DNA of 64,000 bases. Source: Myxococcales bacterium (GTDB lineage Bacteria > Myxococcota_A > Polyangia > GCA-2747355). The notes under the pieces were generated by a model. That model saw only the letters and a list, made by a program, of their open reading frames with translations, was not told the DNA's origin and ran no database searches. The stretch is taken from assembly GCA_020431405.1 (NCBI GenBank), contig JAGQIK010000362.1, positions 9,858 through 73,857 on the forward strand, written 5' to 3'. Shown here in pieces: positions 17,840-51,788 of the stretch. Every line of letters starts with the position of its first letter. The first letter of the stretch is position 1. Both the position numbers and the translations under genes were made by a program.

Positions 17840-17965
17840 ATGGCGAAGAAGACCAAGAAGACGAAGAAAAAAGTCAGTCTCAAAGTCAAAGAGCTAGAGA
17901 ACGTTCGTACGCCTTTGAAGGCGCGCCAACGTTCGCGCGTGGGTGCCTGGAGCACCAGCTGGTAG
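17840..17965 (+). CDS. Small Lys-rich peptide, copy 1 of 3 (41 aa): MAKKTKKTKKKVSLKVKELENVRTPLKARQRSRVGAWSTSW.
   Basis: Not in the ORF track (below 60 aa). Conserved N-terminus and C-terminus shared with copies 2 and 3. Followed by a hairpin plus T-run terminator. The track ORF 17752..17970 is the wrong frame. Confidence 0.45.
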   Translation: MAKKTKKTKKKVSLKVKELENVRTPLKARQRSRVGAWSTSW

Positions 17966-18212: not shown

Positions 18213-18362
18213 ATGTCGAAGAAGACGAAGAAAACGAAGAAGAAGGTCAGTCTCAAGGTCAAAGAGCTCGATAACCTCCGGGCCCCAGCTCCGATGCTGA
18301 AGGCGAGAGCCTCCAAGGCCATCAACCGTAGTCGCGTCGGCGCCTGGAGCACCAGCTGGTAG
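18213..18362 (+). CDS. Small Lys-rich peptide, copy 2 (49 aa): MSKKTKKTKKKVSLKVKELDNLRAPAPMLKARASKAINRSRVGAWSTSW.
   Basis: Internal ATG of the track ORF 18066..18362. Copies 2 and 3 share an upstream element of about 150 bp and the termini shared by all three copies. Terminator follows. Confidence 0.5.
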   Translation: MSKKTKKTKKKVSLKVKELDNLRAPAPMLKARASKAINRSRVGAWSTSW

Positions 18363-18589: not shown

Positions 18590-18733
18590 ATGTCGAAGAA
18601 GACGAAGAAGACGAAGAAGAAGGTCAGCCTCAAGGTCAAAGAGCTCGACAACCTTCGCTCACCGGCTGCGATCGCGAAAGCGAAAGCAGGCATGAGACGT
18701 AGTCGGGTCGGCGCCTGGAGCACCAGCTGGTAA
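18590..18733 (+). CDS. Small Lys-rich peptide, copy 3 (47 aa): MSKKTKKTKKKVSLKVKELDNLRSPAAIAKAKAGMRRSRVGAWSTSW.
   Basis: Internal ATG of the track ORF 18380..18733. Conserved termini. Terminator follows. Confidence 0.5.
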   Translation: MSKKTKKTKKKVSLKVKELDNLRSPAAIAKAKAGMRRSRVGAWSTSW

Positions 18734-28694: not shown

Positions 28695-28717
28695 CGTCAG
28701 TCCTTTTGATTCGTCAT

Positions 28718-30850: not shown

Positions 30851-30867
30851 CGAGCAGCTACGAAGCG

Positions 30868-33447
30868 TTAGCTCAGCATCCGTGCGAGCAGCTCCTCGCA
30901 GCCTGTGACCTCGTGCCCCTCGTTGCCCATGAACTCGTCGACCTGCGACACGGAATAGCCTCGCTGCCGCATCTCGCAATACTGCGCGAGCTCTGGCGAG
31001 ATCTCGAACACGCGTAGGGTCAGCGCGGCGCGCATGCAGTACTGGTCGCCGCTGCGCCAGACAGAGTACGGATTGCTGGTGTTGATGGGTTCGGCTGGCG
31101 GACCGCACTGCTCTACCGCGTCGTCGAACGTCAATCCGGCGTTCGCGACGAAGGGAATAGAGATCTCGAAGTTGTCGGTTGGCGCGCCGTCCTGCATGTG
31201 ACGATGAAGGTCGATGTAGATCTCGTGGCCGGTGTGGAACGCTTCTACGACCATGCTGCGCGTTGCCCGACGCCGTTGCAGGTCACAAAACTGCTCCTCG
31301 GAAAGCGGCGCCGTACACAGGCAGCGCGAGCATCGCTCGAATGCGACGCACGACTCGCAGCCTCTGCGTGCGGTCGTCTCGTTCAGGATCCGCTCGAACG
31401 CCTGCCCTACGGCGTCCATGCTCGGCGTGGTGGCATCGACCAGACCGCAGCCGCTCATGCATGGCGAGAAGCGCCCGCTGTCGTCAGAAAGGGCGACGAC
31501 AAACCCTTGCGTCGAAGGGCAGGGCTCGGCCGCCCAGCGGCAGCTGTCCAAGAACAAGAACCACGATTCTGTCAGCCAGCCAGGCATTCTGAGGTAGCCG
31601 GTACGAGCCGCGCGCGCGTTGAGTCGATCAAATGCCTCGAGGTCGTGCTCGTTGGCGACATCCAACAGCCATATGCAGTAGCGGTTGGAGCTGCGTGGCA
31701 GCGTCGCGGGCGGCTCGTCGACAAGCTCGCCATCGCCGTTTTCGATGAGCCTGATGCTGATCGTGGGGCTGTCACAGACCGCGTTGAGCGGGTCCTCCTT
31801 GCCGCGTGGCGCCGGAGTCTCGCTCGAGCGAGGCTTGCCGCCGAGGACCGTGACGTGCAGCGGGCTTGCTTCGAGCCAGTGCTCGTACGTGCTCAGTGGC
31901 TGTTCGGCGAAGCGGAACATCGGCGCAGTCGCGGGGGCGATGTCCATCAACGGTGTCGGATTGGTGACGGAGGCAACGGCCGGCATCATCAGCGTGTCGA
32001 GGTCGAGCGTGGGAGCGTGCAGTAGCGTTCGAACGCCAGGGATGATCAGTCCAACCATAGGAGCCGGATCCCATCGGTTCTCTATGACCTCCCAGACGTC
32101 ACCGATGTCGTATTCGGCGTCATGGATCTGCAGCAGGCTCTTCTCGAGACGCGGCAGGTATTCGTCTCGCCGCTGGTCGAACAGGAGGAGCCCTGGCACT
32201 AGGGCCAGCAGATTCTGGTTGGTGTCGTCTGCGCCGATCGATTTGGCGAAGCGCACCGTTTCGCGAAACTCGTCTGCGCTTTGGTCGGGAATGCCAAACA
32301 TCATTCCGCAGCCAGTATGAAACCCGATCTCGTTTGCTGTCGTCACGACGCTGCGAAGGCGCTCGAGGTAGCCTTCTTCGCGCTTGTACTCGCCGTCGAT
32401 ACCTCTCTTGTGCACGACCTTGCCGAGACGACGTAGCGTTTCGGGCCCCGACGACTCGAGACCGAACGTCACCATGCGGAAGCCGGCATCAAAGAGGTGC
32501 TGCAGCATCTCGCCATTGATGCTCTCGGCTCGCGTCTCGAAGCCGAAGTGGAGCGCGAACTGTTCGGCAGCCATTCGGTCGAGCAGCTCGTCGAGCTTGC
32601 TCTTTGGTCGAGCGGTGAAGAGCAGGTCCATCAAGAACATGATCTTCAGCTCGTGAAGGCCGGTGGTCTTGTCGATTCCCCGGAAGAGGCCGTGGTCTGC
32701 TTCGCCGCGCTTGTCAGCCGCGACGAACACGTCGTTGATGTGGCTGAGATCGTCGATGACCCGGTCGGTGGAGAAGTAGCGCATGCTCGCGACGTAGTTT
32801 CTGCAGTGGCAGAACCCGCACTTGTACGCGCAGCCGATGGAGGTCGTGTAGTAGTACGGATGGTGTCCATCATCTGCGCCGTACTTCCAAGGCGGTGGGA
32901 TGATGTCGAGCTCGGCAAATCGCTCGCACGCTGGCCACGGCTCCGCTGGCGTCTCGACGTATTCGGCCCCCTTGGGCTCGGTTCGAAATACTAAGCTGCC
33001 GACGCGGTCGAGCAGCCCACGCTTGGCGTCGGCGCGTTCGAATAGCGCAAGCACGGACCAGTAGGGGTCGTAGCGAACGCAGGCGTCGAGCGGCGGGTTG
33101 TTGTCGAGGAACCAGGCAGGTTCGTGGGTCGCGTAGTCGCCCGACGCGATCTGCAGGATGTCCGGGCGACGCTCTCGCAACCCAGCGCCGAGCCATTTCA
33201 TCAGAAAATACAGCTGGGTTCCGGATGGTTGCCGGGGCGATTCGACGAAGAAGTGAACCACCTTGAGGTTGCGGTTCTCGCACAGCTCGTCGAGCAGCGC
33301 CCGTCTCGACTGGTGCAGCGACAGCACGACGCAGCCGGCTGTCCGGATCCCGCGGCTTTCGAGGATGCTTCGGCAGAAGCTCGCCTCGCGCAGACTGGCC
33401 GCGACGGTGCCGGCCCCGTCAGTAACTGCGAGGTATGTGCATGTCAT
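30868..33447 (-). CDS. B12-binding radical SAM enzyme with a C-terminal Cys-rich extension of about 350 aa.
   Basis: SIGCAYKCGFCHC (CxxxCxxC). An …FGLESSGPETLRRLGK… core. C-terminal CESCVAFERCSRCLC cluster (SPASM/twitch-like). Start is uncertain: ATG at 33447 or GTG at 33483. Confidence 0.65.
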   Translation of the reverse strand: MTCTYLAVTDGAGTVAASLREASFCRSILESRGIRTAGCVVLSLHQSRRALLDELCENRNLKVVHFFVESPRQPSGTQLYFLMKWLGAGLRERRPDILQIASGDYATHEPAWFLDNNPPLDACVRYDPYWSVLALFERADAKRGLLDRVGSLVFRTEPKGAEYVETPAEPWPACERFAELDIIPPPWKYGADDGHHPYYYTTSIGCAYKCGFCHCRNYVASMRYFSTDRVIDDLSHINDVFVAADKRGEADHGLFRGIDKTTGLHELKIMFLMDLLFTARPKSKLDELLDRMAAEQFALHFGFETRAESINGEMLQHLFDAGFRMVTFGLESSGPETLRRLGKVVHKRGIDGEYKREEGYLERLRSVVTTANEIGFHTGCGMMFGIPDQSADEFRETVRFAKSIGADDTNQNLLALVPGLLLFDQRRDEYLPRLEKSLLQIHDAEYDIGDVWEVIENRWDPAPMVGLIIPGVRTLLHAPTLDLDTLMMPAVASVTNPTPLMDIAPATAPMFRFAEQPLSTYEHWLEASPLHVTVLGGKPRSSETPAPRGKEDPLNAVCDSPTISIRLIENGDGELVDEPPATLPRSSNRYCIWLLDVANEHDLEAFDRLNARAARTGYLRMPGWLTESWFLFLDSCRWAAEPCPSTQGFVVALSDDSGRFSPCMSGCGLVDATTPSMDAVGQAFERILNETTARRGCESCVAFERCSRCLCTAPLSEEQFCDLQRRRATRSMVVEAFHTGHEIYIDLHRHMQDGAPTDNFEISIPFVANAGLTFDDAVEQCGPPAEPINTSNPYSVWRSGDQYCMRAALTLRVFEISPELAQYCEMRQRGYSVSQVDEFMGNEGHEVTGCEELLARMLS

Positions 33448-33507
33448 GGGGAATACAATACGACATCCCGCAGTAAGATCCACGCGCAGTGTGCGTCACA
33501 GAAAAAA

Positions 33508-35149: not shown

Positions 35150-35366
35150 GTTGATCCTCAGGTCGTGTGTGATCACCCATAGCAGCGCCTTAGGGTGGCA
35201 CAGAGCTCCGACTAGCTTTCGCTGAGGCGGTGCATCCCGAAGTCGTGTTCGAAGTACGGATCAGACTAGCATGGAAATACAGCCCGTAAAGGGGCAATCG
35301 CAGAAAAATTTGTCTGCTAGATTACGGACGATAGGCGGCGAGAAAGGAAGTCGCGCGCCTGGCGCA

Positions 35367-37576: not shown

Positions 37577-37662
37577 GGGTCGCTGAGAGAACAGACGCTC
37601 GCGAGTACGATGGGGTACATTCCACCGCTCGCGCTGCGTTTTTGCAGCCTCGAGGAGGCAAC

Positions 37663-38670
37663 ATGGCGATAGTACCACAGTCCGATTCGCGCGCGCCGCT
37701 GGTCGCCGACATCATCGCGACGCTCTCAGCGGCCGCGAAGATGTCGCGAGCTCTGCAACAGGGGGTGGAGCGTTTGCGCGTCGCCCTCAAGGATGACCGC
37801 AGCCCGGTGACTGTCGCCGACCTCGCGGTGCAGGGACTCGTCGCAGCGCGACTCGCATCGAGCGAGGTGCCGATCGTCGGCGAAGAGCGCGCCGACCTCT
37901 TGCGTCGCGCTGAAGCCTCCGCGCTCACCGACGCTGTCGTCGACGCAGTCTCCGGTCCGGGAGGCTTGCCGATCGCACGTGCCGAGCTGCTCGAGGCGAT
38001 CGACTCGGCCTGCCACGATGGCAGTGCCGAGCGCTACTGGACGCTCGATCCCATCGACGGCACGAAGGGTTTCCTGCGTGGCCAGCACTACGCCATCGCT
38101 CTCGCGCTGATCGAGGGAGGCGAGGTCACCCTGGGAGCGCTGTGCTGTCCCAATCTCGGCGTCGACCCCAACGTCGTCGACTCGGCCGGGACGTTGTATG
38201 TCGCCCTGGCGGGCGCTGGTGCTTGGCAGCTGCCGGGCGGGGACGTCGAGCGTGCGGTACGGATCAAAGCCCGCTCGATCGCTTCGGGTGACGCGCTGCA
38301 GGTTTGCGAGTCGGTAGAGTCGGCACACTCGAAGCATGCCGACGCCGCTCGTATTGTGGCTCACGTGCCATTCGTCGCTGGCGAGCCAGTGCGCATGGAT
38401 AGCCAGTGCAAGTACGCGCTCGTCGCGCGTGGGGATGCCCACGCGTACCTACGCCTCCCCACGCGCGCAGACTACCGCGAGAAGATCTGGGATCACGCGG
38501 CGGGTTTGATCGTGGCTCGGGAGGCCGACGCAGTCGTCACCGACGTGCATGGGAAGGCGCTCGATTTCCGACATGGTCGGACACTCGAACAAAATCGCGG
38601 CGTGATCTGCGCCAGTCGCGGTGCGCATCAGCCCTTGGTTGATGCCTGCCAGCAGTTGGGCATTGGGTGA
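37663..38670 (+). CDS. 3'(2'),5'-bisphosphate nucleotidase (PAP phosphatase), CysQ/HAL2 / inositol monophosphatase family.
   Basis: WTLDPIDGTKGF metal-binding motif. About 335 aa. GAGGAGG Shine-Dalgarno before the ATG at 37663. Confidence 0.55.
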   Translation: MAIVPQSDSRAPLVADIIATLSAAAKMSRALQQGVERLRVALKDDRSPVTVADLAVQGLVAARLASSEVPIVGEERADLLRRAEASALTDAVVDAVSGPGGLPIARAELLEAIDSACHDGSAERYWTLDPIDGTKGFLRGQHYAIALALIEGGEVTLGALCCPNLGVDPNVVDSAGTLYVALAGAGAWQLPGGDVERAVRIKARSIASGDALQVCESVESAHSKHADAARIVAHVPFVAGEPVRMDSQCKYALVARGDAHAYLRLPTRADYREKIWDHAAGLIVAREADAVVTDVHGKALDFRHGRTLEQNRGVICASRGAHQPLVDACQQLGIG

Positions 38671-38713: not shown

Positions 38714-39301
38714 ATGAGACGGATGCCATGGATGTCGCGGCAGACCGCCAGCGCCATAGTTTTCATGGCGTTGGCGTGCCCGTTGTGGGGCTGTGCCTAT
38801 TTCTTCGACGCGGACGCGACCACGCGCGAGTTTCGGCGGGCGTTGCGTCTGCAGCGGCGCGGCCACGACGAAGCGGCCCTCGTTGCCTACGGCGCGCTCG
38901 CGCCGCGCGCTCGCCGGCTCGAAGGCGCGCTCAACAACATGGCCCTGATCTTCGCACGCCGTGGCGACGTCGCTCGGGCCGAGCAGTTGCTGAGGCTCGG
39001 TACGCGTGTTGGCGCTAACAACTGCACCGTTTGGCTGAATCTGGGCCTCGTGCTCGCCACGCGCGGTCAGGTGCGCGAGGCGCGCTGGGCTTGGCAGCAG
39101 GTGCGCGCCGCGCGCGATCGTCTGCTCGACAGCGCGCCAGCGTCGCGCCATCAGATCTACACGTCGTCGATCATGCGGCGCAGCCATGCCGCGATCGCGC
39201 GCGCCGAACGCTATCTCAGGGGCACGCGCGCGAGCACGAGGCCGCGACGCGAGTCCTACGCGCTCGTCTTGCTAACGGCCCAGACTTCGACCTCGCAGTA
39301 G
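38714..39301 (+). CDS. TPR-like lipoprotein (hypothetical).
   Basis: Signal plus lipobox (FMALACPLWGCA). TPR-like helices. Confidence 0.35.
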   Translation: MRRMPWMSRQTASAIVFMALACPLWGCAYFFDADATTREFRRALRLQRRGHDEAALVAYGALAPRARRLEGALNNMALIFARRGDVARAEQLLRLGTRVGANNCTVWLNLGLVLATRGQVREARWAWQQVRAARDRLLDSAPASRHQIYTSSIMRRSHAAIARAERYLRGTRASTRPRRESYALVLLTAQTSTSQ

Positions 39302-41367: not shown

Positions 41368-41447
41368 CGGACCTAACGAGCGCTAGACTGATCTATAGTA
41401 GCGACGATTCGGGAAATACTGCCCGTCACTCAAGTGCGAGTCAAATC

Positions 41448-43067
41448 ATGCCGATCGCCGATGCATGCGCAGCGTGGGCCGCTGCGCTCGCGCCAGACCG
41501 AGTCTCGCGCGACGCCAACGTCGTAGCGAAGTATGGGCGATCGACGTTGGTCGAAGCACCGCAACCGCTGGCCGTGCTGCGACCGACCTGCCGCGACGAG
41601 GTTGTCGCCGCCGTCAAGATCGCGAGCCAGCACGCGGTGCCGCTCTACCCGATCAGCCGGGGACGAAACTGGGGTTTGGGGGCAGCCTGTCCGCCGACGG
41701 CGGGGCAAGCCGTGCTCGACCTGAGCCTCATGAACAAGATCGTCGAGGTCAACGAGGAGTTGGCCTATGCGGTGATCGAGCCCGGGGTAACCCAGGGGCA
41801 GCTCGCCGAGTATCTGGACGACAACGAGATCGACTTGATGCTCGATTGCACCGGGGCGGGGCGCGACGTGAGCATCGTCGGAAACTGCCTCGAACGTGGT
41901 GACACCTTCGGCGTGTACGCAGACCGGTTCTTGCATTGCTCGGCGTTGGAAGTCGTCTTGCCCAACGGGGACGTGATCACCACCGGCCTCGGTCATCTCG
42001 ATGCGGCCGCGACAAACCTCTACAAGTGGGGAGTTGGACCATCGCTCGACGGGTTGTTCAGCCAGTCGAATTTCGGCGTTGTGACGCGGCTGACATTGGA
42101 GCTGATGCCGGAGCCGGAGACGATGTCGGTCTATTTCTTCGGCGTCGAAGACGAACAGCTTGAAGACCTCATCGAAGCGCTTCGGCCGCTGCGCTTGTCT
42201 GGCGTCATACACACGGCGCTGCACCTGGCCAACGACTACAAGGCGCTGGCCGCCATGGAGTTCTATCCGTGGGACGAGACCAATGGCCAGACGCCGCTGC
42301 CCGAGTCGGTGCGTCGCCGCATGCGCGCGCGGTACCCGTTCATTCAGGGCTGGATTGGCAACAGCGCGTTCTATGGCACCCATGACCAGGTGCAAGCTCA
42401 GCAACGGGAGCTGAAGCGGGCGCTGCGCGGGATCACGCGAGTGCAGTTCGTCACCCCGAGGAAGCTCGAGTGGGGGCTGCGCGCACTTCGTGTGCTCGCG
42501 CGCACCAGGCTGCCAGTGGTCGATCGGTTGGGTACGTTGGTCGAGCGTGCGCGGACGATGCTCACGTTGATGGCCGGGATCCCCAGCAACAACACACTGC
42601 TCGGAACTCAGTGGCGGTTGCGCCGAGAGCCGCACGAGGAGTCGCTGGACCCGCTCGACAATGGCATCGGTATGTACTGGTTCGCGCCGATCTGTCCGCT
42701 TACTGGAGAGCACGTACGAAGGCTGCAGCGTTTGATCGAGGAGATCTCGGCGGAGTACCAGTTCGAGCCGATGCTCAACCTTACGTTGCTGACCGGGCGG
42801 GCAGCGCTGCTGACGAATGTCGTGCTCTACGATCGCGACGATGCGAGCGAGAGAGAGCGCGCGGCGCGCTGCAACAACGCATTGGTCGAGCGCGGGATCG
42901 CCGCCGGCTATCCGCCGTTTCGCTGCAGCATCGATTCATTTCGACACCTCGGCGCGAACGACTCACCGTACTGGCGATTCGTGCGGCAACTGAAGCGTGC
43001 GGCGGATCCGGAGGGCGTTATCGCTCCCGGCCGATACTCGCCGTGGGTCTTCCACGACGCGAGCTAG
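41448..43067 (+). CDS. FAD-binding oxidoreductase (PCMH-type FAD-linked oxidase family).
   Basis: N-terminal FAD-binding region (…AVLRPTCRDEVVAAVKIASQHAVPLYPISRGRNWGLG…). 539 aa. Confidence 0.55.
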   Translation: MPIADACAAWAAALAPDRVSRDANVVAKYGRSTLVEAPQPLAVLRPTCRDEVVAAVKIASQHAVPLYPISRGRNWGLGAACPPTAGQAVLDLSLMNKIVEVNEELAYAVIEPGVTQGQLAEYLDDNEIDLMLDCTGAGRDVSIVGNCLERGDTFGVYADRFLHCSALEVVLPNGDVITTGLGHLDAAATNLYKWGVGPSLDGLFSQSNFGVVTRLTLELMPEPETMSVYFFGVEDEQLEDLIEALRPLRLSGVIHTALHLANDYKALAAMEFYPWDETNGQTPLPESVRRRMRARYPFIQGWIGNSAFYGTHDQVQAQQRELKRALRGITRVQFVTPRKLEWGLRALRVLARTRLPVVDRLGTLVERARTMLTLMAGIPSNNTLLGTQWRLRREPHEESLDPLDNGIGMYWFAPICPLTGEHVRRLQRLIEEISAEYQFEPMLNLTLLTGRAALLTNVVLYDRDDASERERAARCNNALVERGIAAGYPPFRCSIDSFRHLGANDSPYWRFVRQLKRAADPEGVIAPGRYSPWVFHDAS

Positions 43068-43073: not shown

Positions 43074-44945
43074 TCAGAGCACGCAGTTGAGGCGAATGGT
43101 GCGGATCACGCGGCGCAGGATCTGATAGAGCAGCGTGGTCTTGCCGCCATCGATCCGGGCGACACCGGTCATGTCTGGACGAAGGAGCCGCTTGGGGTTG
43201 CTGACGCGGCTGCGTACGACGAGGTAGCGCTTCTTGGTGGTGCTGTCGACCTCGACCTTCGCAGCGATCGCCACGACTTTTCCGGTGAACGATCGCTCCG
43301 GCATGCTCGTCACCTTCAACTCCACCGGCTGGCCAACCTTGATGATGTCGAGGTCCTCCTCGGCGACCTTTACCTCTACATCCATCGTGCTCGAGTCGGC
43401 CACTTCGAACAGCGTTTCGCCTTTCTGAACGCGACTGCCTAGCCTCTCTTTGAGCTTTCGAGTGACGATCGTGCCTTCGATGGGGCTGTAGACCATCGTT
43501 CCCTTGAGCTGGTCCTCGACGAGACGGCGTTTTGCGACCAGCGCGTCACGTTTGGCAGCGAGCTGGGCGAGCTCTTCCGGCGACGGCTTCTTGGTCAACA
43601 CCGAAAGCCGTGCACGCTGCTCCGCTGCCGCCGCCTGACGTTGCCGAAGATCGTCGGTGCAGGTTCGTAGCTTGTCGCGCGCTACCACGCCTTGCCGCAC
43701 CAGCCGTCGCAGGCGTCTGCACTGACCGCGTTTGATGCGCACCGCCAACAACTTGGATCTGACCTCACGCCACGCGCTGACCCGTTCTTCCTTGGTCGCG
43801 CCGCGCTTGAGCCGCTTGATCTCCGCGTCTACCGCCGCGATCTCGGCTACCCCCGACTGCAGCTGTCGCTCGAGATCCGTCTTGTCGAGCTTCACCACGA
43901 GCTCGCCCTTCTTGACACGCTCGCCCTCGCCTTTGAGAACCTCGCCGATCAGCCCGTCGATCGTCGGCCGCACGGCCCGGCGCCTAGCGGGGCGTAGTGT
44001 ACAGTCGTGCTTGGCGCTCAGCTGCACTGGGATGAGCGACGCGATCAGCGCCAGCACGCCGACGACGCCTAGCCGTATTCCCCACTTGAGCAGGCGTCGG
44101 CCAATGGACGGCTTGGGTAGGTGTGACCCAGCCGGTGGCACCGCGTCGTCCTCGTCGTCCTCTTCTTCTTCGTCGTCTTCTTCGTCGTCCTCGTCGTCGT
44201 CTTGCTCGTGCGCGCCGATCTCTCGCATCAGCTCGGATTGCATCGCCTCGAGCGAGGTGGCTCCGCGTCGGCGCATCTCGCCGTTGATGATCTCGAGCAT
44301 CGAGCGGGCCTCGACGTTTTCGGGGTCGAGCTCGATCAGGGCCTTGAGGTAGCGAATCGCCTCGATGACGAGGCCTTGCTTGTACATGACGAGCGCGGCG
44401 TTGAACATCCGCCGGCTCTCGGCGCGCCACGCTGATTCGACGCTGCGTTGCTCCGCGCGGACCATTTCCGTGTGAGGCGGCTCGGGGACCTCGCGGAACG
44501 CATCGTCGCGCATACCGAAGTCGGCCATGCGTGCGTCGAAACGGCGCCGGCCCGCGTCCCGGAGTTGCTGGTCGTGTTCGCCCTCGTCGTCGTCCCACTC
44601 GTGGCCCGTCGTGGCGGACAGGATCGTGTCGTCGTCGTCGTCGTCGTCCCACTCGTTCTCGGGTGCGGTGAACTCCGTGGGCGCAGCAAGGTCGAGGGCG
44701 CCGATGGCGGCTAGCCTCTGCACCACGAACTCGATTTCCGTGGCCTTTAGCGCGATAGAGTGTGCATGCGCAGCTTGCAGCAGCTGGGGCAGGCTCGTTC
44801 GACCATCTAGCTGCCGGGCGAGAAACGCCAAGCGCTTGTCGGCGGAGATCGACTGCTGCGTGTCGAGGTTGCGTACTTCGACGAGGTTGCCATTGAGAAC
44901 AACCCGCGCTCGCTCGCTCAGTTTGGGTTGCGTCGAGTCACCCAT
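43074..44945 (-). CDS. HlyD-family membrane-fusion / secretion adaptor protein with an acidic low-complexity N-terminal region.
   Basis: Biotin-lipoyl-like, coiled-coil and beta-barrel segments (…VVKLDKTDLERQLQ…YSPIEGTIV…). DDDEDDEEDDEEEEDDEDD run. Confidence 0.55.
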   Translation of the reverse strand: MGDSTQPKLSERARVVLNGNLVEVRNLDTQQSISADKRLAFLARQLDGRTSLPQLLQAAHAHSIALKATEIEFVVQRLAAIGALDLAAPTEFTAPENEWDDDDDDDTILSATTGHEWDDDEGEHDQQLRDAGRRRFDARMADFGMRDDAFREVPEPPHTEMVRAEQRSVESAWRAESRRMFNAALVMYKQGLVIEAIRYLKALIELDPENVEARSMLEIINGEMRRRGATSLEAMQSELMREIGAHEQDDDEDDEEDDEEEEDDEDDAVPPAGSHLPKPSIGRRLLKWGIRLGVVGVLALIASLIPVQLSAKHDCTLRPARRRAVRPTIDGLIGEVLKGEGERVKKGELVVKLDKTDLERQLQSGVAEIAAVDAEIKRLKRGATKEERVSAWREVRSKLLAVRIKRGQCRRLRRLVRQGVVARDKLRTCTDDLRQRQAAAAEQRARLSVLTKKPSPEELAQLAAKRDALVAKRRLVEDQLKGTMVYSPIEGTIVTRKLKERLGSRVQKGETLFEVADSSTMDVEVKVAEEDLDIIKVGQPVELKVTSMPERSFTGKVVAIAAKVEVDSTTKKRYLVVRSRVSNPKRLLRPDMTGVARIDGGKTTLLYQILRRVIRTIRLNCVL

Positions 44946-47289
44946 TTCTTCGAGGCACGATCAGGCTAACAGACGTAGGGCCTGGGGCAATCCAGCGCTC
45001 CGCGGCGGCGGCAACGTCGGCTGCCTTCGTCGACCGCAGTCGCTCGATCCAACGACCTGGGCTCAATTGCGCTGAACAGGTCTCTCCGAGAGCCAGCCAA
45101 CTGCTCGCGGTGTCGGGAGAAGACATCGTCGCGACCACGTTTCCGACCGCCCGCGCCCTGGCAAGCTCGATCTCTTTGGTGTGCTCGGCTGCCTCGACAG
45201 CGGCTTCGAGCACGCTCCGCGTCTCCTCGTACACCTCGTGTGGCTGCGCCGGCGTTATCGCAGTGACCAGTAGACAGCCACCCTCGGCGGCACAAATGTA
45301 TTCGGCGCGAATGTCGTACACGAGGCCGAGCATATTGCGCACGCGTTCAAAGAGCCAACCCGATTCGCCACCGAGTAGCCTGCAGAACAGCTCGCATGCG
45401 CTCGCCTCTGCGTCGCCGAGCGTCGGCATCGCGAAGCCAACAGCGACGAAGCCGAGCGGCAGGAAGGGAGATTGCACCACCCGGGGCCGCCAGCTCGGGG
45501 TTCCGAGCACGGTGCGAGCTCGTCGCGTAGGCGATACAGGGTCCAGCGTGAGCTCGGCCAGCTCGCTGCGCTCTTCAGTCGTCACGGCCATGCCGCTGAT
45601 GGCGATGATCGGTGACCGTCCGCTCCATTGGACGGTGCAGTCGCCGAGGGCACCGCGGATGACGGACGCTCGCTGCTCCTCGCGAGCGACCTGTGGCGTG
45701 ACCTCGGCAGGCAGGTCGCTGTCGAGGAGCTCTGCGACGCGAGTGACCAGGTGACGTACCCTCTCGGGCGTGTCGCCATGGCAGCGGGTCGTTACCACCA
45801 GGCCGTGGTGTTCGAGCGTGACGCTCGTCAGTGGATCGCACAGGCCCTCTTCGAAGAGCTCTCTCGCGCGCACCGAGGCATCCCAACTGCCAAACACCCC
45901 CGTAGGAATGACGGCCTCGATGCTCGACGTCATCGACGCGAACGACTCGAGCGGCGCGTAGATGATGCCGTTCTCGAGCCGCTCGACCTCGGGCAGCGCG
46001 CTTCGAACCTTCGGCGGCGGTCTCCGTTTCGCGGCGGCGAGCGGGGGCGTGTGCGGCTCGGGCGTGAGCTGCACCTGAAGTGCGCGCTCTTGTGCAAGGT
46101 ACGCGCTCGTCGTCAGCCGTAGCTCCTCGGCGCCCAGCGATCGCAGGCGCGCCAAGTCGTGCCAGGGCCGCAAAGGCTCGTGGTGAGTCACGATCGCGTC
46201 ACCGAGCCACGCGGGGACGTTGACCGCGTCCAGTGACGTCATCTGCTCGATCTCGCAGGTCCTTCGAAGGTCGTCGATGTCGAAGGTCTCGATGAAGCGC
46301 TCGGGAAGGCTGCGCAGCCGTCTCATTTCGCTGCGCGGGTCGGAAGTGCCAGGCCCGATCAGAACGAAGAGGCTCGAGCCTTTGCGCGGAATATGCACGC
46401 CGAGGGTCTGCGGCGAGCTGTTCGCCAGCAGCTGCCCGATCCCGCGTGCTGCCACCGACAACGGCAGAGATGCGGGCGAGCGCACATCGGGCAAGACCCA
46501 GGCGGCGGCGAGCTGCGGAAACGCACGAGGTGTGCGGCCATCGATGCTCGCGCCGGGCGGGTCTACAGCGAGTCTGTGATGTCGAATGTGGGGCGAATCG
46601 TCGACCTCTGGTCGGGCTCGTGAGCCGCTGAAACAACGCGCTAGCGACTTGGCGTCGACGGGCCCCGCGGCGACGACGACCGTGCGCGAGGGACTGACGA
46701 CGTAGCCGTGAAGGTCGCGAAGCACCGACGCGGAGACGCCTTCCACCGTCTCGCGTGCCCCCAGTGGATCAAACCGATATGGATGACCGTGGGGGTAGAG
46801 TGCGCGTCGGACGGCAAGCACCACAGGGCGCCACAGCTCGCCTTCGCTCTCCATCAGCTCGGCGATGATCACACGTCGCTCATCGCGAACGTCCCCGGCG
46901 TCGATGGTCGGCCACAACGTGTGGTCGGCTAGCACCCTCGCCGCCTCGTGCGTGTGGGCGGCGGGCACCTTGACGGACGTGGCCATCAGATCGAACGCCG
47001 TGAAGGCCTGCACCGTGCCGCCGAGCGCTTCGATCTCGTCGCTGAGGTACCCCGAGCGCCGCGTGGACCCCAAGAACAGCATATGTTCGAGAAAGTGCAG
47101 CGTGCCTGGCGAGCGCTCGACGCACGTGCCGACACTCGACACGATGCCGACGCAAGCGACGGGAAGTGTGCAGGGCAGGACGATCACGCGTAGGCCCGAA
47201 TCGGTCACTGCGGTATCGAGGGTTACGCGAGTGCCAACGAGCGATCGGGACATGCGCCTCAGCATACGGGATGCGCTGGGTGCGTACAC
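44938..47289 (-). CDS. M16-family zinc peptidase (insulinase/pitrilysin-like), a double-domain protein.
   Basis: Inverted zinc motif HFLEHMLF (HxxEH). 783 aa. Start overlaps the upstream gene. Confidence 0.7.
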   Translation of the reverse strand: MYAPSASRMLRRMSRSLVGTRVTLDTAVTDSGLRVIVLPCTLPVACVGIVSSVGTCVERSPGTLHFLEHMLFLGSTRRSGYLSDEIEALGGTVQAFTAFDLMATSVKVPAAHTHEAARVLADHTLWPTIDAGDVRDERRVIIAELMESEGELWRPVVLAVRRALYPHGHPYRFDPLGARETVEGVSASVLRDLHGYVVSPSRTVVVAAGPVDAKSLARCFSGSRARPEVDDSPHIRHHRLAVDPPGASIDGRTPRAFPQLAAAWVLPDVRSPASLPLSVAARGIGQLLANSSPQTLGVHIPRKGSSLFVLIGPGTSDPRSEMRRLRSLPERFIETFDIDDLRRTCEIEQMTSLDAVNVPAWLGDAIVTHHEPLRPWHDLARLRSLGAEELRLTTSAYLAQERALQVQLTPEPHTPPLAAAKRRPPPKVRSALPEVERLENGIIYAPLESFASMTSSIEAVIPTGVFGSWDASVRARELFEEGLCDPLTSVTLEHHGLVVTTRCHGDTPERVRHLVTRVAELLDSDLPAEVTPQVAREEQRASVIRGALGDCTVQWSGRSPIIAISGMAVTTEERSELAELTLDPVSPTRRARTVLGTPSWRPRVVQSPFLPLGFVAVGFAMPTLGDAEASACELFCRLLGGESGWLFERVRNMLGLVYDIRAEYICAAEGGCLLVTAITPAQPHEVYEETRSVLEAAVEAAEHTKEIELARARAVGNVVATMSSPDTASSWLALGETCSAQLSPGRWIERLRSTKAADVAAAAERWIAPGPTSVSLIVPRRNG

Positions 47290-47307
47290 GTATGGCGAAA
47301 CAAAGCG

Positions 47308-49914
47308 CTACATCACACGCCAGAACGTCAGCGAGAAAAAGCGCCGCAGCGGCCGCAGGAAGAGCACGAGCAGCGGCTCGGGTCGGCAAAGGACCTTGCC
47401 AGTGCCGCTAATTCCCGGACGCACCCAGCGCGGAGCATCGACGAGGCGGACGCGTATTGGCAGATCGGTGACTTTGAACCGCTTGCGCTCCACCTGCTTG
47501 ATGGAGTGCGCCAAGCGCGGAGCGAGCTTGTCCACGGTGCCCTTGACGTGGCGCCCGTCTCCGACCTGCAGCACCATGCGCACGGCTAGTCCTCGCCGCA
47601 GGCCGAACAGCTGCTGATCTTCTTCGAGCTTGAGTATCGCGTGCATCGACGACGACAGCTCGAACAGCTTGGTGCCCGGCTCGACCCAGCGTCCGAGCTG
47701 CTCCTCGGGGCGCGTGGTCGTCACGATGCCAGCCGAGGGGGCTCGCACGACCAGCGCGCGCTGCCTGATCGACAGGCGTTCCCGCTTTGCACGATAGCTG
47801 GCGCACTTCGCTTTCTGGGCTGCGACCAGCGCGGGGTTGATGGCCAGGCGTGCTCCGCGAGCGGCCGCCGCCTTGGCCACGCCGGATGCTGCTACCCGCG
47901 AGCTGTCGAGCAGCGCGCGCAGGTCCTCGCGCGGAATCACCGAGGCGAGCTTGCGCGAGCGACGAAGCTTCTCCGCCGCCGAGCGCGCTTTGACATTGGC
48001 GCGGGCAAGCTTGGTGAGCTCCAGCAGCCGCTCTGCGGCCGTCGCGCCGCGGCGAAGCTGCGCGAGCTTCGCTTCGCACTGCCGTGTTTCGGCGGCGGCC
48101 TGCTGGATGTTGGCAGCCAGGGTCGGGTTTTCCAGGCGCACCAGCACCTGTCCCTTGACCACCTTCGCGCCCTCCTTGGTTTTGATCGCCACGACCCGCC
48201 CCTCGACCGTCGCGCTGACGCTATGTGTCGTGTGCTCGATGCGCACCGTCCCGGTGATCATCGGTGACACGTCGACGAGGTAGAACGCCGCAGCGTCGAT
48301 TCCCAGCCATACCAACACGAGCGATGCCAAGCGCAGCCGATTGGCCCACGACTTCTGCTTGAGCGGAGCGAACGTCTCCTTGAGCAGTGAACCGAGGATC
48401 TTGAACAGAAGAAACAGCACCAGCGCGACGCCCAAGCCACCGAAGAAGGGAGTCAGCAGTCCCCACAATGATCCGGCGATACGGACGAGCCACAGGGTGC
48501 GGAACACCAGCGTCGCCACGCCCAGCGCGAGAAGGAGCGTCGCGACGCGCTGCGCGGTCGGTCGCAACGCGCCAACGAAGATCAGCGCGGACACCCCCAT
48601 GCAAGCCGAGATCGCGATCGATACCACGAACATTCCGCGGTTGACGGCCAGAGCGATCAGCAACGGCAGGATCACGAGGTTTGTCAGACCTAGCACGCAG
48701 AACGCGCGGAACGGTCCCGCGCGATAGGCGCGAGTCAAGGGTATGAGGATGCGCCGCTGCAACGCGGCTGTCGCGTCTTTGCTGAGCGATCGCAGATCGA
48801 GCATCCCGGCGAGCACGTGCTGGCCGTCGAGCGGTAGCAAGGGAACGAACTGAAACAGCGAAACGACGCCGGAGACGCTGGCGAGCGCGATGAAGTAGTT
48901 GTGAAGAAGCCCAGGTGCAGTGACGTACCACCCGATGGTCGCCACGATCCACAGGTTGACGGTGATCCAGACGCCGGCGGCCGCGGTGACGACCTTGCCC
49001 TTCCTGCTGAAATGGTGAGCATCGCTCACGTCGCAATAGGCGGCGGGGAGCACGTACATGATCAACATCAGCCCCATGCTCGAAGGACGGCCGCCGAAGT
49101 GCACCGCGGCCAACCCGTGGCCGAATTCGTGAACCACGAGCATGGTGAACATCGCGCCGATGAACAGACCGAACTTCGGCGCGCTCCACGAGGACTGGAA
49201 GAACTCCGCGTAGCGCGTGTAGTCGGCGTAGTAGAGCATCGCGCAGATGGTCGTAGCGACCACCCACACTGCGACCCACCAGCGGCTGAAGAGGAACTTC
49301 GTCGGCTGGTACAGCCGCTGGAGCATCGCTGTGGGGTTGATCAGGTGGAACGTTGGGAATGGAGCTTTGGGCTTGGGCCCCGTCTCGACGACGGCGTCGT
49401 TCAACAGCGTGATGGCTGTGCTGACACGCTCGTTGGACGGATTGACCTCCGCCGCCACGATCAGGCAGCGCGCCGCTTCCACCGGGTCTTGCTTGTTCAG
49501 CCAATCGGCCGCGCGCCACAGAAACGTCAGATCGTCTCGTTGCTCGTTTGCGACGCGTCGAAGTATGCCCGCCTTCTTCCACTTCTTGAGGGCTCTGCGA
49601 GCCGCCTTCGCACGCTCGCGTGAATCCAGCTGGTCCAGCGAGGCGGTGACGAGCAGTCGGCGTCGCTTGAGGACCTCGATGAATTTCCAAAGGTCTCGGG
49701 CGGAGACCCAGGCGTCATACTTGTCACCTAGCGTTTCGGCTATCTCGTCGACGGTACGCTTGCCGTCGAGGTGACGCAGAACGTCAGCCTGGAAAGGGCC
49801 GAGCTCCAAACGCACGTCCGAGATCGGGTCCTTGACGACGAAGGCCCGCCCTTGGTCGACAGGGTGGATTTCGATATCTGGGCGGAGCTCGGGTAGGCTG
49901 ATCTGTTGCGTCAC
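47308..49914 (-). CDS. M50 (site-2 protease family) membrane metallopeptidase fused to a HlyD-like periplasmic adaptor domain.
   Basis: HEFGHGLAAVHFGG within TM helices. The C-terminal 350 aa are HlyD-like (coiled coil plus beta-barrel). GTG start. Confidence 0.55.
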   Translation of the reverse strand: MTQQISLPELRPDIEIHPVDQGRAFVVKDPISDVRLELGPFQADVLRHLDGKRTVDEIAETLGDKYDAWVSARDLWKFIEVLKRRRLLVTASLDQLDSRERAKAARRALKKWKKAGILRRVANEQRDDLTFLWRAADWLNKQDPVEAARCLIVAAEVNPSNERVSTAITLLNDAVVETGPKPKAPFPTFHLINPTAMLQRLYQPTKFLFSRWWVAVWVVATTICAMLYYADYTRYAEFFQSSWSAPKFGLFIGAMFTMLVVHEFGHGLAAVHFGGRPSSMGLMLIMYVLPAAYCDVSDAHHFSRKGKVVTAAAGVWITVNLWIVATIGWYVTAPGLLHNYFIALASVSGVVSLFQFVPLLPLDGQHVLAGMLDLRSLSKDATAALQRRILIPLTRAYRAGPFRAFCVLGLTNLVILPLLIALAVNRGMFVVSIAISACMGVSALIFVGALRPTAQRVATLLLALGVATLVFRTLWLVRIAGSLWGLLTPFFGGLGVALVLFLLFKILGSLLKETFAPLKQKSWANRLRLASLVLVWLGIDAAAFYLVDVSPMITGTVRIEHTTHSVSATVEGRVVAIKTKEGAKVVKGQVLVRLENPTLAANIQQAAAETRQCEAKLAQLRRGATAAERLLELTKLARANVKARSAAEKLRRSRKLASVIPREDLRALLDSSRVAASGVAKAAAARGARLAINPALVAAQKAKCASYRAKRERLSIRQRALVVRAPSAGIVTTTRPEEQLGRWVEPGTKLFELSSSMHAILKLEEDQQLFGLRRGLAVRMVLQVGDGRHVKGTVDKLAPRLAHSIKQVERKRFKVTDLPIRVRLVDAPRWVRPGISGTGKVLCRPEPLLVLFLRPLRRFFSLTFWRVM

Positions 49915-50012: not shown

Positions 50013-51788
50013 CTAGATAGGCCATCCCAGCGGCACCAGCCAAACCAGCCCTGCGATCACGAGCGCGGTCAAGGGCAAGCCGAGCCGAAGGTAGTCCGCG
50101 AACGTATAGCCGCCGGGGCCGTAGACCATGATGTTGGTGGCGTATCCCGTTGGCGTCAGAAACGATGTAGCACAGGCGAGGGTCACCGCCGCGGCGATGC
50201 CGCGTGGTTGCAGCGACAGCGTTCGCGCCGCCGTGAGGGCGATGGGCAACACCAGCGCAGCAGCCGCGTTGTTGGTGACCAGCTCTTTGAGTAGCGCAGC
50301 AGCCAAAGCCACACCCAAGAGGACGCCACGCGGTCCAAAACGGCCGAGAGACTGCACGAGCGCGGTCGATAGTCTGGTCGCGAGGCCCGAGTTGTTGACG
50401 CCCGCCGCCAAACCGAATGCGGCGGCGATGGTGACGACGACGTTGGTGTCGATCGCCTGCTGTAGGTCGCTCGCGCCGAGGGCACGGCCAAACACCAACA
50501 CGGCGGCGCCGCCGAGCGCAGCGGTGACCAGTGGCACGACGCGCGCGGCGGACAGCGCTACGATCGCCACGGCGACCACAAACACCAGCCACGCGCGGCG
50601 CGACAGCTGGCGCGGCACCGTGAAGAATGGGGCGATCAACAAGAAGTCCGGCCGGTCGCGCCAGCGGCGGTAGAAGCCCTCTCCCGCGACCATCAGCAGC
50701 GTGTCGCCGGTGCGGATGGTTACCTGGCCTAGCTTGCCGCTGATGCGGTGTCCCGCCCGATGTATCGCCAGCACGGCGGCTTGGTAGCGGCTGCGAAACC
50801 CCGCTTCCTTGAGCGTCTTTCCGACGAGCGGCGAGGCTGCGCCGACCACTGCCTCGAAGTGTTCGACCTCGTCAGTTTCGAGCGTGACGACGTGGTCCTT
50901 CTCGGCAGAGACCAAGCCAGGAAGGCGCTGAAGGTCGACGATGTCGTCGACCTTGCCGGCGAAACGTAGGCGGTCGCCGCCATGGAGGATGGTGTCCGGA
51001 CGCACCGGGGCGATGTGGTGGCCGTCCGCAGCGCGTTGTAGCTCGACCAGAAAGACGCCATTGAGACGCCGCAGGCCGGCGGCCTCGACCGTATGCCCTT
51101 CGAGTTCTTGACCTGCGCTGACCACCATGTCGACGACGTAGTCGCGCAGCTCTTCGACGACCTCGCGTCGGGTCGAGCGCCGCTCGGGCAGCACGATCGG
51201 TCCGACCACGATGATGAGCAGCAGTCCGGCGACCGCGATTGGGACTCCGGTCCGCGAAAGCTCGAAGAAGCCAAATGGGTCGAGCCCCGCATCCTGCATC
51301 ATGCCCGAGACGAGCAAGTGCGTCGCAGTTCCTGCGATCGTGGCGATACCGCCCAGAATTGCCGCGAACGAGAGTGGCATCAGGAACATCGACGCCGGTC
51401 GCTCGTTGCGGGTCGTCCACTGCTGAACCTCGGGCACGAGCAGAGCTACGATCGGCGTGTTGTTGAGGAACGCAGACATTGCCGCGGTGGGAAACAGCAG
51501 GCGCGCCAGAGACGGTCGCAAGGAGCGACCCGATCCCAGCATGGCGCGGACGAGCGGTGACAACGCGCCGGTTCGCTCTACCGCAGCGGCGAGCACGTAC
51601 AAGGCGGCGATGGTTATCGGCGCTGGATTAGCGAAGCCAGCCAGTGCCTGCCGTGGTGTGATGATCTGCGCGCAAAGAAGCGCGATGGTGGCACCGACCA
51701 TCGCGCCCGAGGAGCTGACGCGGTCGCGCACCATCGCGCCGAACGCGATCACCAGAGTTCCCAGAGCAAACCACTCCGACCATTGCAT
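50013..51788 (-). CDS. SLC13/DASS-type anion permease with two central TrkA-C regulatory domains.
   Basis: Polytopic N- and C-terminal halves flanking a soluble about 160-aa TrkA-C-like region. 591 aa. Confidence 0.55.
   Translation of the reverse strand: MQWSEWFALGTLVIAFGAMVRDRVSSSGAMVGATIALLCAQIITPRQALAGFANPAPITIAALYVLAAAVERTGALSPLVRAMLGSGRSLRPSLARLLFPTAAMSAFLNNTPIVALLVPEVQQWTTRNERPASMFLMPLSFAAILGGIATIAGTATHLLVSGMMQDAGLDPFGFFELSRTGVPIAVAGLLLIIVVGPIVLPERRSTRREVVEELRDYVVDMVVSAGQELEGHTVEAAGLRRLNGVFLVELQRAADGHHIAPVRPDTILHGGDRLRFAGKVDDIVDLQRLPGLVSAEKDHVVTLETDEVEHFEAVVGAASPLVGKTLKEAGFRSRYQAAVLAIHRAGHRISGKLGQVTIRTGDTLLMVAGEGFYRRWRDRPDFLLIAPFFTVPRQLSRRAWLVFVVAVAIVALSAARVVPLVTAALGGAAVLVFGRALGASDLQQAIDTNVVVTIAAAFGLAAGVNNSGLATRLSTALVQSLGRFGPRGVLLGVALAAALLKELVTNNAAAALVLPIALTAARTLSLQPRGIAAAVTLACATSFLTPTGYATNIMVYGPGGYTFADYLRLGLPLTALVIAGLVWLVPLGWPI

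Follow-up and report, generated by a model that had tools for sequence, protein, structure and literature searches.

Removal of a leader peptide by an intramembrane protease is a documented step in the biosynthesis of daptides, a class of RiPPs (peptides made on the ribosome and modified after translation). In daptide clusters, which have 2.3 precursors per cluster, a RiPP recognition element (RRE) is fused N-terminally to an intramembrane site-2 protease, and this enzyme, MpaP, removes a leader that carries the motif ELExMEAP (Ren et al., 2023, PMC10028931). Before this 2023 work, no leader peptidase of the RRE-guided intramembrane kind was known; in daptide clusters, such enzymes act alongside separate ABC exporters. 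Here, we consider an operon of three minus-strand genes, called A, B and C, found in a 64,000-nt stretch of DNA from a Myxococcales bacterium (GenBank assembly GCA_020431405.1, contig JAGQIK010000362.1, positions 9,858 to 73,857 of the forward strand); the whole stretch is hereafter called the window. Protein A joins an RRE, an M50 peptidase core and a HlyD-type adaptor domain in one polypeptide, protein B is an M16 peptidase, and protein C is a second HlyD-type protein headed by an RRE. Very likely, A is an RRE-guided leader peptidase. Probably, though with appreciable room for doubt, the three proteins together serve a RiPP cluster with dispersed genes, as its module for leader removal and export.

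The likeness of A to MpaP (NF041824) lies first in its layout, an N-terminal RRE placed on an M50 membrane core. The best NCBIfam match of A is this 'daptide biosynthesis intramembrane metalloprotease' model (daptide_HExxH), with 116.3 bits and E=1.7e-33 over the core, residues 189-425. The likeness extends to the presence of several short tandem precursors per cluster, whose leaders read ELExMEAP in daptides and KLEERIAP or KELDNLRAP here. However, the score of A stays far from the model cut-off of 300 bits, only the core is aligned, and A additionally has a TPR-like insert, further membrane helices and, at its C-terminus, a HlyD adaptor. Moreover, daptide clusters encode ABC transporters together with the aminotransferase, dehydrogenase and methyltransferase that act on the C-terminal Thr. 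Among the window open reading frames (ORFs) scanned, none encodes such a transporter, and no aminotransferase, alcohol dehydrogenase, methyltransferase or DUF-RRE gene was found; the candidate precursors of the window, P1 to P3, end in Trp. Unlike those of the daptides, the enzymes of the window are radical-SAM, YcaO and sulfotransferase proteins. Membership of A in the daptide class was therefore rejected, the score being below the NF041824 cut-off and the daptide tailoring genes being absent.

Four further systems can be compared. The epipeptide metalloprotease YydH/LiaK (NF058609) is also an M50-type membrane protease that frees a RiPP from its leader (E=7.7e-11 with A), but A reaches 42 bits where the cut-off is 225. 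The YydH/LiaK system is not known to have an RRE or a HlyD fusion, and export proceeds via the YydIJ ABC transporter. Peptidase-containing ABC transporters (PCATs) associated with a HlyD accessory protein (class II bacteriocin, NHLP and Nif11 systems; TIGR03794) recognise a leader, cut it and hand the product over to a HlyD adaptor. The A-B-C system may work in a comparable way but does not belong to this group: it has no C39 or ABC domain, it uses a metallo-intramembrane protease and RRE recognition, and A scores 25.9 bits on TIGR03794, where the cut-off is 156. In their last 320 residues, A and C have the same lipoyl, alpha-hairpin and beta-barrel fold as MacA, EmrA and AcrA. Adaptors described so far are proteins in their own right that work for an energised pump, whereas in A a protease carries the adaptor, and linked pump genes are lacking. 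Finally, the pyrroloquinoline quinone (PQQ) pathway also associates a PqqD-type domain and an M16 clamshell peptidase acting on a short precursor, and B matches the PqqF model (E=8.4e-7), but with 28 bits against a cut-off of 320, and PqqA, PqqB, PqqC and PqqE are missing. The triple fusion, accompanied by an RRE-HlyD protein but by no pump, represents a distinct and widespread architecture that is apparently uncharacterised. Within the limits of the literature searched, no publication on the RRE-M50-HlyD family was found, the searches leading only to the daptide paper.

Architecture of proteins A, B and C

The three ORFs span positions 43074-49914 in the ORF list (Table 1). Their GC content at third codon positions is 0.77-0.82, a coding-type value that is also seen in other genes of the window, which has 65% GC. 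NCBI annotates A and B as well, the latter as a 771-aa protein starting at ATG 47253. The original prediction for this locus, made from the sequence alone, described overlaps of 8 and 19 nt at the two junctions. The first is real, the start of C and the stop of B sharing 8 nt (ATGGGTGA). The second is instead a gap, of 18 nt between the stop of A at 47308 and the earliest start of B, GTG 47289, or of 54 nt if the NCBI start of B is used. As had also been stated, the operon contains no pump gene and is neighboured on the same strand by a DASS-type permease. Downstream of C, a plus-strand FAD oxidoreductase gene converges on the operon, which therefore ends at C.

Pfam, NCBIfam, the structural model and Foldseek agree that A is an M50 peptidase fused to a HlyD-like domain, as proposed at the outset. 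In the Pfam scan, A matches HlyD_D23 (44.6 bits) and HlyD_3 (32.7 bits), while the Peptidase_M50 match (PF02163) is barely above its cut-off (27.7 versus 27.2 bits) and the PqqD match is just below its own (23.0 bits). The RRE was recognised with a profile of the aligned N-terminal ~100 residues of 16 A-family members (profile A2), which matches the solved structures of PqqD (3g2b, E=3e-7) and of the lasso peptide RREs TfuB1 (1.2e-3) and TbiB1 (0.025). In an AlphaFold model of A obtained from 17 sequences (mean predicted local distance difference test score, pLDDT, of 73), the N-terminus is composed of strands 15-19, 24-29 and 34-38 followed by helices 40-48, 55-66 and 72-84, which corresponds to the RRE topology. 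The HEFGH motif falls inside the hydrophobic segment 248-271 as well as inside a model helix, so that the HExxH motif is located in the membrane, as predicted, and the alternative that it lies outside a transmembrane (TM) helix does not hold. The second M50 motif reads VPLLPLDG, with LPLDG at residues 360-364, and fits the (N/x)xxPxxxLDG pattern. Residues H262, E263, H266, D363 and G364 are invariant in two alignments, one of 17 homologs (A1) and one of 5 homologs (A3). The Pfam scan detected neither a PDZ nor a CBS domain in A. When the C-terminal domain (from about residue 550) was submitted to Foldseek, the top matches were MacA, EmrA and AcrA, with E values of about 1e-15.

The HlyD nature of C is supported by Pfam matches to HlyD_D23 (86.9 bits, E=1.5e-24) and HlyD_3 (67.1 bits, E=2.7e-18), and the HlyD domains of A and C are 27% identical over 305 aa. 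Concerning its N-terminus, C alone aligns to profile A2 with an hhalign probability of 79% (E=1.7e-5), and a profile of three C-like protein sequences (A4) does so with a probability of 97% (E=5e-11). When profile A4 is compared with the PDB, PaaA (0.005) and PqqD (0.012) are retrieved. The N-terminus of C is thus folded, since a PqqD-like RRE occupies residues 1-90. The original description of C as a HlyD protein with an acidic disordered N-terminus therefore stands for the adaptor part only; the acidic runs are linkers on either side of a TPR-like repeat. A TPR-like insert is also found in A, where it resembles residues 180-228 of C (E=0.019).

B is an M16 peptidase with two domains and the HxxEH motif, in agreement with the first description; it matches M16 (53 bits) and M16_C (57 bits) in Pfam, carries the inverted zinc motif HFLEH from residue 65 and the distal E144, and has no signal peptide. 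Among PDB structures, it resembles 3hdi and M16 proteins of the MPP-beta type. Its two nearest homologs are housekeeping fused M16 proteins encoded among housekeeping genes, and the M16 gene was therefore recruited locally; it is a lineage-specific addition to the operon. The notion that two peptidases are welded to two adaptors thus goes too far: the M50 peptidase alone is truly fused, whereas the M16 peptidase has its own gene and, among the loci sampled, joins the system in this genome only. If B is part of the pathway, its recruitment into the operon would offer a natural experiment in two-step leader processing.

Table 1. Coordinates of the operon genes, of the domains and motifs of their products, and of other features of the window
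Feature	Position	Strand	Description or basis
Gene A	47308..49914	-	868 aa; RRE + TPR-like insert + M50 + HlyD fusion
RRE, PqqD-like, A residues 1-92	49639..49914	-	profile A2 and model
TPR-like helical insert, A residues 129-178	49381..49530	-	subclade-specific, common to A and C
M50 (site-2 protease type) membrane core, A residues 189-400	48715..49350	-	daptide_HExxH, Pfam M50, pLDDT 80-94
HEFGH zinc-binding/catalytic motif, A residues 262-266	49117..49131	-	in model helix 245-272
LDG, second M50 motif, A residues 362-364	48823..48831	-	supplies third zinc ligand Asp
HlyD/membrane fusion protein (MFP) domain, A residues 550-868	47311..48267	-	lipoyl, long alpha-hairpin, beta-barrel; Pfam, Foldseek
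Gene B	44938..47289	-	783 aa; fused two-half M16 (insulinase/MPP-beta type) zinc peptidase
HFLEH inverted M16 zinc motif, B residues 65-69	47083..47097	-	distal Glu144 75 residues later
Gene C	43074..44945	-	623 aa; RRE, TPR-like repeat between two acidic linkers, one TM helix, HlyD adaptor
Second PqqD-like RRE, C residues 1-90	44676..44945	-	hhalign
Single predicted TM helix, C residues 289-307	44025..44081	-	hydropathy 2.16 over 19 residues
HlyD/MFP periplasmic domain, C residues 320-623	43077..43988	-	Pfam
Precursor P1 (candidate)	17840..17965	+	41 aa; MAKKTKKTKKKVSLKVKELENVRTP-LKARQ-RSRVGAWSTSW; full MAKKTKKTKKKVSLKVKELENVRTPLKARQRSRVGAWSTSW
Precursor P2 (candidate)	18213..18362	+	49 aa; leader MSKKTKKTKKKVSLKVKELDNLRAP; full MSKKTKKTKKKVSLKVKELDNLRAPAPMLKARASKAINRSRVGAWSTSW; terminator hairpin after
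Precursor P3 (candidate)	18590..18733	+	47 aa; full MSKKTKKTKKKVSLKVKELDNLRSPAAIAKAKAGMRRSRVGAWSTSW; terminator hairpin after
B12-binding radical-SAM protein	27153-28898	-	candidate maturase
YcaO protein with E1-like/TOMM leader-binding domain	28718-31108	-	candidate maturase
Large radical-SAM protein	30868..33483	-	871 aa; Pfam Radical_SAM
FAD-binding oxidoreductase (FAD_binding_4)	41448-43067	+	downstream of C, converging
DASS/CitMHS-type anion permease	50013..51788	-	two TrkA_C domains; Pfam and NCBIfam; ends 98 nt upstream of A

Homologs of A and their leader-bearing neighbours

The fusion is widespread. An exhaustive HMMER search against 1.84 billion cluster representatives returned 7,402 matches at E<=1e-3, 2,399 at E<=1e-10 (counted as 50%-identity clusters) and 95 at E<=1e-30. 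At least 578 confirmed loci emerged from a pattern scan that covered a single genome for each species; they lie mostly in Planctomycetota, Acidobacteriota, Gemmatimonadota and Verrucomicrobiota. Full-length homologs are single ORFs of 700-895 aa in many independent genomes and metagenomes. The nearer relatives of A (P0037-P0041 and P0052, 27-34% identity) include several that are near full length, P0038 and P0041 being partial; these closest relatives were missed by a word-index protein search and were revealed by the exhaustive HMMER search alone. P0037-P0040, which were aligned with A in A3, have both the TPR-like insert and the extra helices of A, and the insert is missing from the wider family. 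A metagenome scan with the subclade alignment added no further close loci, most of what it retrieved being distant M50 proteins.

Gene neighbourhoods were compared over 80 loci with 10-kb flanks by clustering their ORFs. Further HlyD-type proteins are the sole widely conserved neighbours of the A homologs. An ABC-like ORF occurs within 10 kb at a single one of these loci; the family is thus not tied to an efflux pump, a partnership that would have counted against the original prediction. A weak M16 match was likewise found at one locus of the 80. The C-like partner is present at all five subclade loci with usable flanks, precursor-like ORFs at four of them and M16 at none. Orthologs of C are encoded at L152 (777 aa, 33% identity over 478 aa, E=2e-52), L088 (513 aa), L090 (761 aa, 37%, and 552 aa, 29%) and L151 (526 aa, 36%). 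One of the two C-like proteins of L090, the one 37% identical to C, has the order RRE, acidic run, TPR, TM helix and HlyD domain.

At the loci of the best-scoring A homologs, one to three tandem short ORFs are found, mostly directly upstream and on the same strand. Such tandem ORFs with a ...KLE(E/Q)RI(A/V)P leader occur near A homologs at L001, L002, L003, L005, L006, L007, L011, L019, L068, L081 and L082. Their N-termini are conserved and lysine-rich (for instance KKKRFRIVKLEERVVP, LKVEELEQRIAP and KKRTSLKVVKLEQRIAP), and the cores that follow vary and are often rich in Gly, Ser or Asn. These short ORFs gave no match in NCBIfam models. The daptide class was discovered in a like manner (PMC10028931), and the leader motif of the present ORFs is plainly of the daptide type. 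Within the subclade, four tandem precursor-like ORFs, MKKKLKIKKLQVRDLTRR...TTCTSTTCTSTTCT, accompany the two C-like proteins of L090. L151 has one such ORF (MQKKNLKDLMKLRELDKRIAPGEPRNSRYNWA), together with an RRE-fused enzyme, an aminotransferase and a C-like HlyD protein. L086 also has one, ending in ...LELRELEESVAPLALAVT, with LanB-like, radical-SAM and U32 genes. None was seen on the short contig of L088, which carries a C-like partner and, alone among these loci, an OEP/TolC-like gene adjoining the A homolog. The co-occurrence of the RREs of A and C with leader ORFs suggests that these domains may bind leaders.

The most informative locus for the window is L152. Three tandem ORFs, MEQ.KTQKKVEIKKALKKNLALEIKTLEVRAAP...FARGKGGY, face a divergent operon in which a radical-SAM protein of 880 aa, a HlyD-like protein of 541 aa, the A homolog and the C homolog are encoded in that order. 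The 880-aa protein is 26% identical over 739 aa (E=2e-56) to the large radical-SAM protein of the window. The same set of components is thus compact in L152 and spread over about 32 kb in the window. The 537-aa ORF of the window at 33563-35176 (-) does not match the HlyD-like 541-aa protein.

Several of these loci deserve a separate mention. Beside the A homolog P0002, the top word-index match, L081:6962-7968 contains multi-cassette precursor ORFs with two and four repeats of a [basic leader ...KLE.RIAP][core G(I/L)WxNHNETLVR(E/D)] cassette, in which each core would need to be cut at both ends. The L086 ORF (206-373, minus strand) resembles daptide precursors in its leader motif and in ending with a Thr that follows an aliphatic stretch, yet its cluster comprises LanB-like, radical-SAM, U32 peptidase and RRE-M50-HlyD genes. 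The leader of the L151 ORF (3037-3222) is the closest to that of the window, ELDKRIAP compared with ELDNLRAP; it is directly followed at 3342-4973 by the gene of a 543-aa enzyme with a PqqD-like N-terminus, and then by the genes of the aminotransferase, the C-like HlyD protein and the A homolog. In L057, a Chthoniobacterales metagenome-assembled genome (MAG), two giant Gly-rich repeat proteins are encoded on the minus strand (motifs at about 6094 and 2628), at most 10 kb from an RRE-M50-HlyD gene, and start with MRNLEFLEILEPRIAP and ...RIFLEPLEDRIAP (...LEILEPRIAP and ...LEPLEDRIAP). Giant secreted proteins may thus be among those headed by this type of leader motif. No NCBIfam model matched these two. 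The motif recalls the NCBI 'LEPR-XLL' N-terminal domain, but this identification was not retained, as neither the short peptides nor the L057 giants have an NCBIfam match; the papers found to mention LEPR-XLL are silent on function.

A three-gene unit comprising GAF-GAF-HlyD (~680 aa) and RRE-M50-HlyD (~745 aa) is found at L039:5284-11836 and at about 45 other Planctomycetota, Acidobacteriota and Verrucomicrobiota loci. The third gene, for a plain HlyD protein of ~336 aa, is present in many, not all, of them, the Planctomycetota order being GAF-GAF-HlyD, 336-aa HlyD, RRE-M50-HlyD. No short ORFs adjoin the A homolog at these loci. The family thus occurs here in another form, with GAF sensor domains replacing the RRE on the adaptor that partners the fusion.

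Candidate precursors, proposed pathway and competing explanations

Three short tandem ORFs of the window, P1 to P3, are candidate precursors. In each of them, the leader is rich in lysine and closes with KVKEL(D/E)N(L/V)R(A/S/T)P; the part that follows varies, whereas the C-terminus, RSRVGAWSTSW, is conserved. They are spaced by 373 and 377 nt, and a GC-rich hairpin with a T-run follows each of P2 and P3. Over 25 leader codons, the ratio of synonymous to non-synonymous differences between precursor copies is 8:4 and 6:1 (the latter for P3 versus P2), and the last 11 codons show 3-4 synonymous and no non-synonymous differences. NCBI annotates two of the three, P2 among them, as hypothetical proteins. 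The tandem copies, the synonymous changes in the leader, the conserved C-terminus and the terminators indicate that P1-P3 are real genes under selection. They had been overlooked at 17840-18733 in the original prediction, as had the RREs of A and C, which leaves that first picture correct in outline but incomplete.

The leader of P2 was compared by local alignment with the precursors of other loci, against composition-preserving shuffles of P2 (3000 each). The score of P2 was reached by none of the 3000 shuffles for L152c and L007, by 4 for L082, 9 for L081 and 10 for L152b. In an ungapped scan of 28 leaders over the ~128,000 six-frame positions of the window, P1-P3 hold the top five scores (40-36). 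A regular-expression search of the window for LE.RIAP gave nothing, the motif of the window being shifted to ELDNLRAP, and neither the motif search nor the ungapped scan found another window ORF with a leader-like motif. The similarity between the window leader and the precursors of other loci is thus significant but modest. It is likely, although not assured, that P1-P3 are substrates of A.

Taken together, the RREs, the daptide-like core, the leader ORFs adjoining A homologs and the gene set of L152 make the operon best understood as a leader-removal and export module. The original suggestion of a leader cleavage and secretion device for the neighbouring maturase genes is therefore supported for the genes at 27-33 kb, whereas no grounds were given for the proposed link with the locus at 39-43 kb. 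The following sequence of events can be proposed. The radical-SAM, YcaO and B12-radical-SAM enzymes (27-33.5 kb) would modify the precursor, whose leader would then be bound by A through its RRE, and probably by C in the same way. Near the conserved Ala-Pro, the leader would be cut by the M50 site, located at the inner membrane face, by analogy with the action of MpaP on daptides. The HlyD domains of A and C would assemble a periplasmic MacA-like tube leading to a TolC-like channel encoded elsewhere; for such an export role, the chances look about even. B, as a cytosolic clamshell peptidase suited to peptides of such sizes, might trim residual leader residues or degrade the freed leader, a role that we propose tentatively and that is somewhat more doubtful than the export one. 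One may also speculate that the conserved acidic linkers of the C-like proteins capture the strongly basic leaders electrostatically.

If this scheme is correct, the scattered parts of the present Myxococcota cluster (precursors, radical-SAM, YcaO and perhaps sulfation genes) would form one pathway, and the fusion protein combined with a K-rich ...LE.RIAP/ELDNLRAP leader would provide a genome-mining handle for RiPP clusters in poorly mined phyla. It would also raise the question of how a peptide crosses two membranes when a protease is the only inner-membrane component. An answer can be imagined in which RRE-M50-HlyD proteins and their RRE-HlyD partners form a pump-less, protease-gated trans-envelope export machine, devoid of an ABC, RND or MFS motor: the leader would dock on the cytoplasmic RREs and the M50 cut itself would free the core into the HlyD tube, towards an outer-membrane channel. 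We regard such a machine as unlikely. Should it exist, this would be a previously undescribed and widespread route in Planctomycetota, Acidobacteriota, Gemmatimonadota, Verrucomicrobiota and Myxococcota, serving peptides, and possibly large proteins, whose shared leader is of the KLE(E/Q)RIAP type and akin to the ELExMEAP motif of daptides.

Several observations weigh against the assignment of the operon to a dispersed RiPP cluster. P1-P3 lie 25-30 kb from the operon, on the opposite strand, and housekeeping-looking genes (PAP phosphatase, OmpA-like, FAD oxidoreductase) are found in between. Among 5.8 billion proteins, the only matches to P1-P3 were the window's own copies, and their pairing with the operon therefore cannot be checked by co-occurrence. 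In the shuffle test, the similarity of the P2 leader to L090, L003 and L086 is not significant. In the ungapped scan, the margin is small (40 versus 36 for the best background), the lowest P1-P3 score tying with the background. A profile hidden Markov model (HMM) of the 28 LE.RI.P leaders, run on all window ORFs, misses P1-P3 (E>10), because the model is over-fitted to the exact motif used in collecting the leaders. The role of B has no comparative support, since about 150 related loci yielded no comparable M16 gene (the single match, at L069, being weak and partial) and since the nearest homologs of B lie in housekeeping contexts. The window contains no outer-membrane factor or energised transporter, and export by the HlyD domains is therefore purely inferred. 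The topology of A, RRE inside and HlyD outside, is a predicted one, and no experiments on any RRE-M50-HlyD protein were found in the literature searched.

The best surviving alternative, which we nevertheless consider improbable, is that A-B-C does act in leader cleavage and export, but not on P1-P3; its substrate would be either peptides encoded elsewhere or large secreted proteins headed by LE.RIAP, and the 17.8-33.5 kb cluster would be served by other proteases. The distance between precursors and operon would be accounted for in this way; moreover, Planctomycetota-type loci lack adjoining short ORFs, and the L057 giants with LE.RIAP-type starts lie close to an A homolog, so that the substrates of the family need not be small. 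On the other hand, no other ORF of the window bears the leader motif, the window contains no other protease or exporter fit for P1-P3 and no C39 or ABC gene, and in L152 the homolog of the window's radical-SAM gene is directly syntenic with homologs of A and C.

A second alternative is that A and C serve as periplasmic adaptors in conventional tripartite efflux, for self-immunity or drug efflux, with TolC and an ABC, MFS or RND component encoded elsewhere; the peptidases would then be involved in quality control or regulation and not in leader removal. To our knowledge, every characterised HlyD adaptor works with an inner-membrane pump, and this counts in favour of such a role, as do the resemblance of the HlyD parts to MacA, EmrA and AcrA and the DASS permease that adjoins A. 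However, the RREs present on both A and C point to peptide leaders, a pump gene is linked to the family in only one of the 80 loci, and the M50 core stands in the place of the pump partner, in one polypeptide, in thousands of homologs. An efflux role is thus less probable still than a different substrate.

The original prediction had also envisaged an independent signalling system by regulated intramembrane proteolysis, of the RseP/SpoIVFB type, cleaving a membrane-anchored regulator. In its M50 fold and motifs, A does agree with site-2 proteases, and the recurrence of PilZ-domain genes near family members hints at a regulatory tie. Yet A has neither PDZ nor CBS domains, no sigma or anti-sigma gene is found among the annotated neighbours, and an N-terminal RRE and recurrent adjacency to leader ORFs are not features of such systems; this idea found no support and is very improbable. 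Finally, although the source is a MAG, an artefactual origin of the fusion or of the operon, through misassembly or a frameshift, has a negligible chance: single-ORF, full-length RRE-M50-HlyD proteins occur in many independent genomes and metagenomes, internal stops are absent and codon bias is uniform. Thousands of proteins share the fusion, which rules out a frameshift.

Extent of the putative cluster and neighbouring genes

The GC content of the 16-34 kb region is 0.58-0.65, below that of its surroundings, and the dispersed set of components is bracketed by a transketolase gene on the left and shikimate-pathway genes on the right. The longest ORFs of the candidate maturases at 27153-33483 overlap by 181 and 241 nt; their true starts are therefore probably located downstream. 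Inside the putative cluster, ORFs at 39256-41367 (-, 703 aa), 33563-35176 (-, 537 aa) and 21070-22605 (+, 511 aa) have no confident Pfam or NCBIfam match, and the 703-aa ORF has no sequence match in the PDB. A 427-aa ORF at 41430-42713 (-), devoid of domain matches, is wholly antisense to the FAD_binding_4 gene and is probably a spurious high-GC shadow ORF.

With respect to transport, the pair of ABC ATPase motifs (Walker A and LSGGQ) was found in no ORF of at least 150 aa across the window, C39 and peptidase-ABC domains are absent from the Pfam and NCBIfam scans, no TolC homolog was found in the window, and no other type of pump gene is present among its annotated ORFs. The DASS permease may be co-transcribed with the A operon, its membership in the system being uncertain; elsewhere, a DASS homolog adjoins an A homolog at one locus only (L125).

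Two adjacent sulfotransferase genes at 18832-20983 (-) adjoin the precursors. A HAL2/CysQ-type 3'(2'),5'-bisphosphate nucleotidase (3'-phosphoadenosine 5'-phosphate, PAP, phosphatase; 276 bits, above cut-off) is encoded mid-region at 37642-38670 (+), and the permease beside A has Na_sulph_symp/DASS similarity. It may be speculated that these genes fit peptide sulfation, PAP disposal and perhaps sulfate uptake.

Of about 6 loci with a member of the A subclade, 3 also encode a PilZ-domain protein nearby, at 37214-37678 (-) in the window, L088:6118-7251 and L151:17047-18147. This recurrence may reflect a link to cyclic di-GMP, or a coincidence. Periplasmic binding proteins of the Phosphonate-bd family (PF12974) are also found near the subclade, at 56607-57503 (+) in the window, L085:265-1320 and L152:16634-17434. 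The L085 copy, which shares 34% identity with that of the window (E=7e-20), is encoded immediately upstream of the closest homolog of A.

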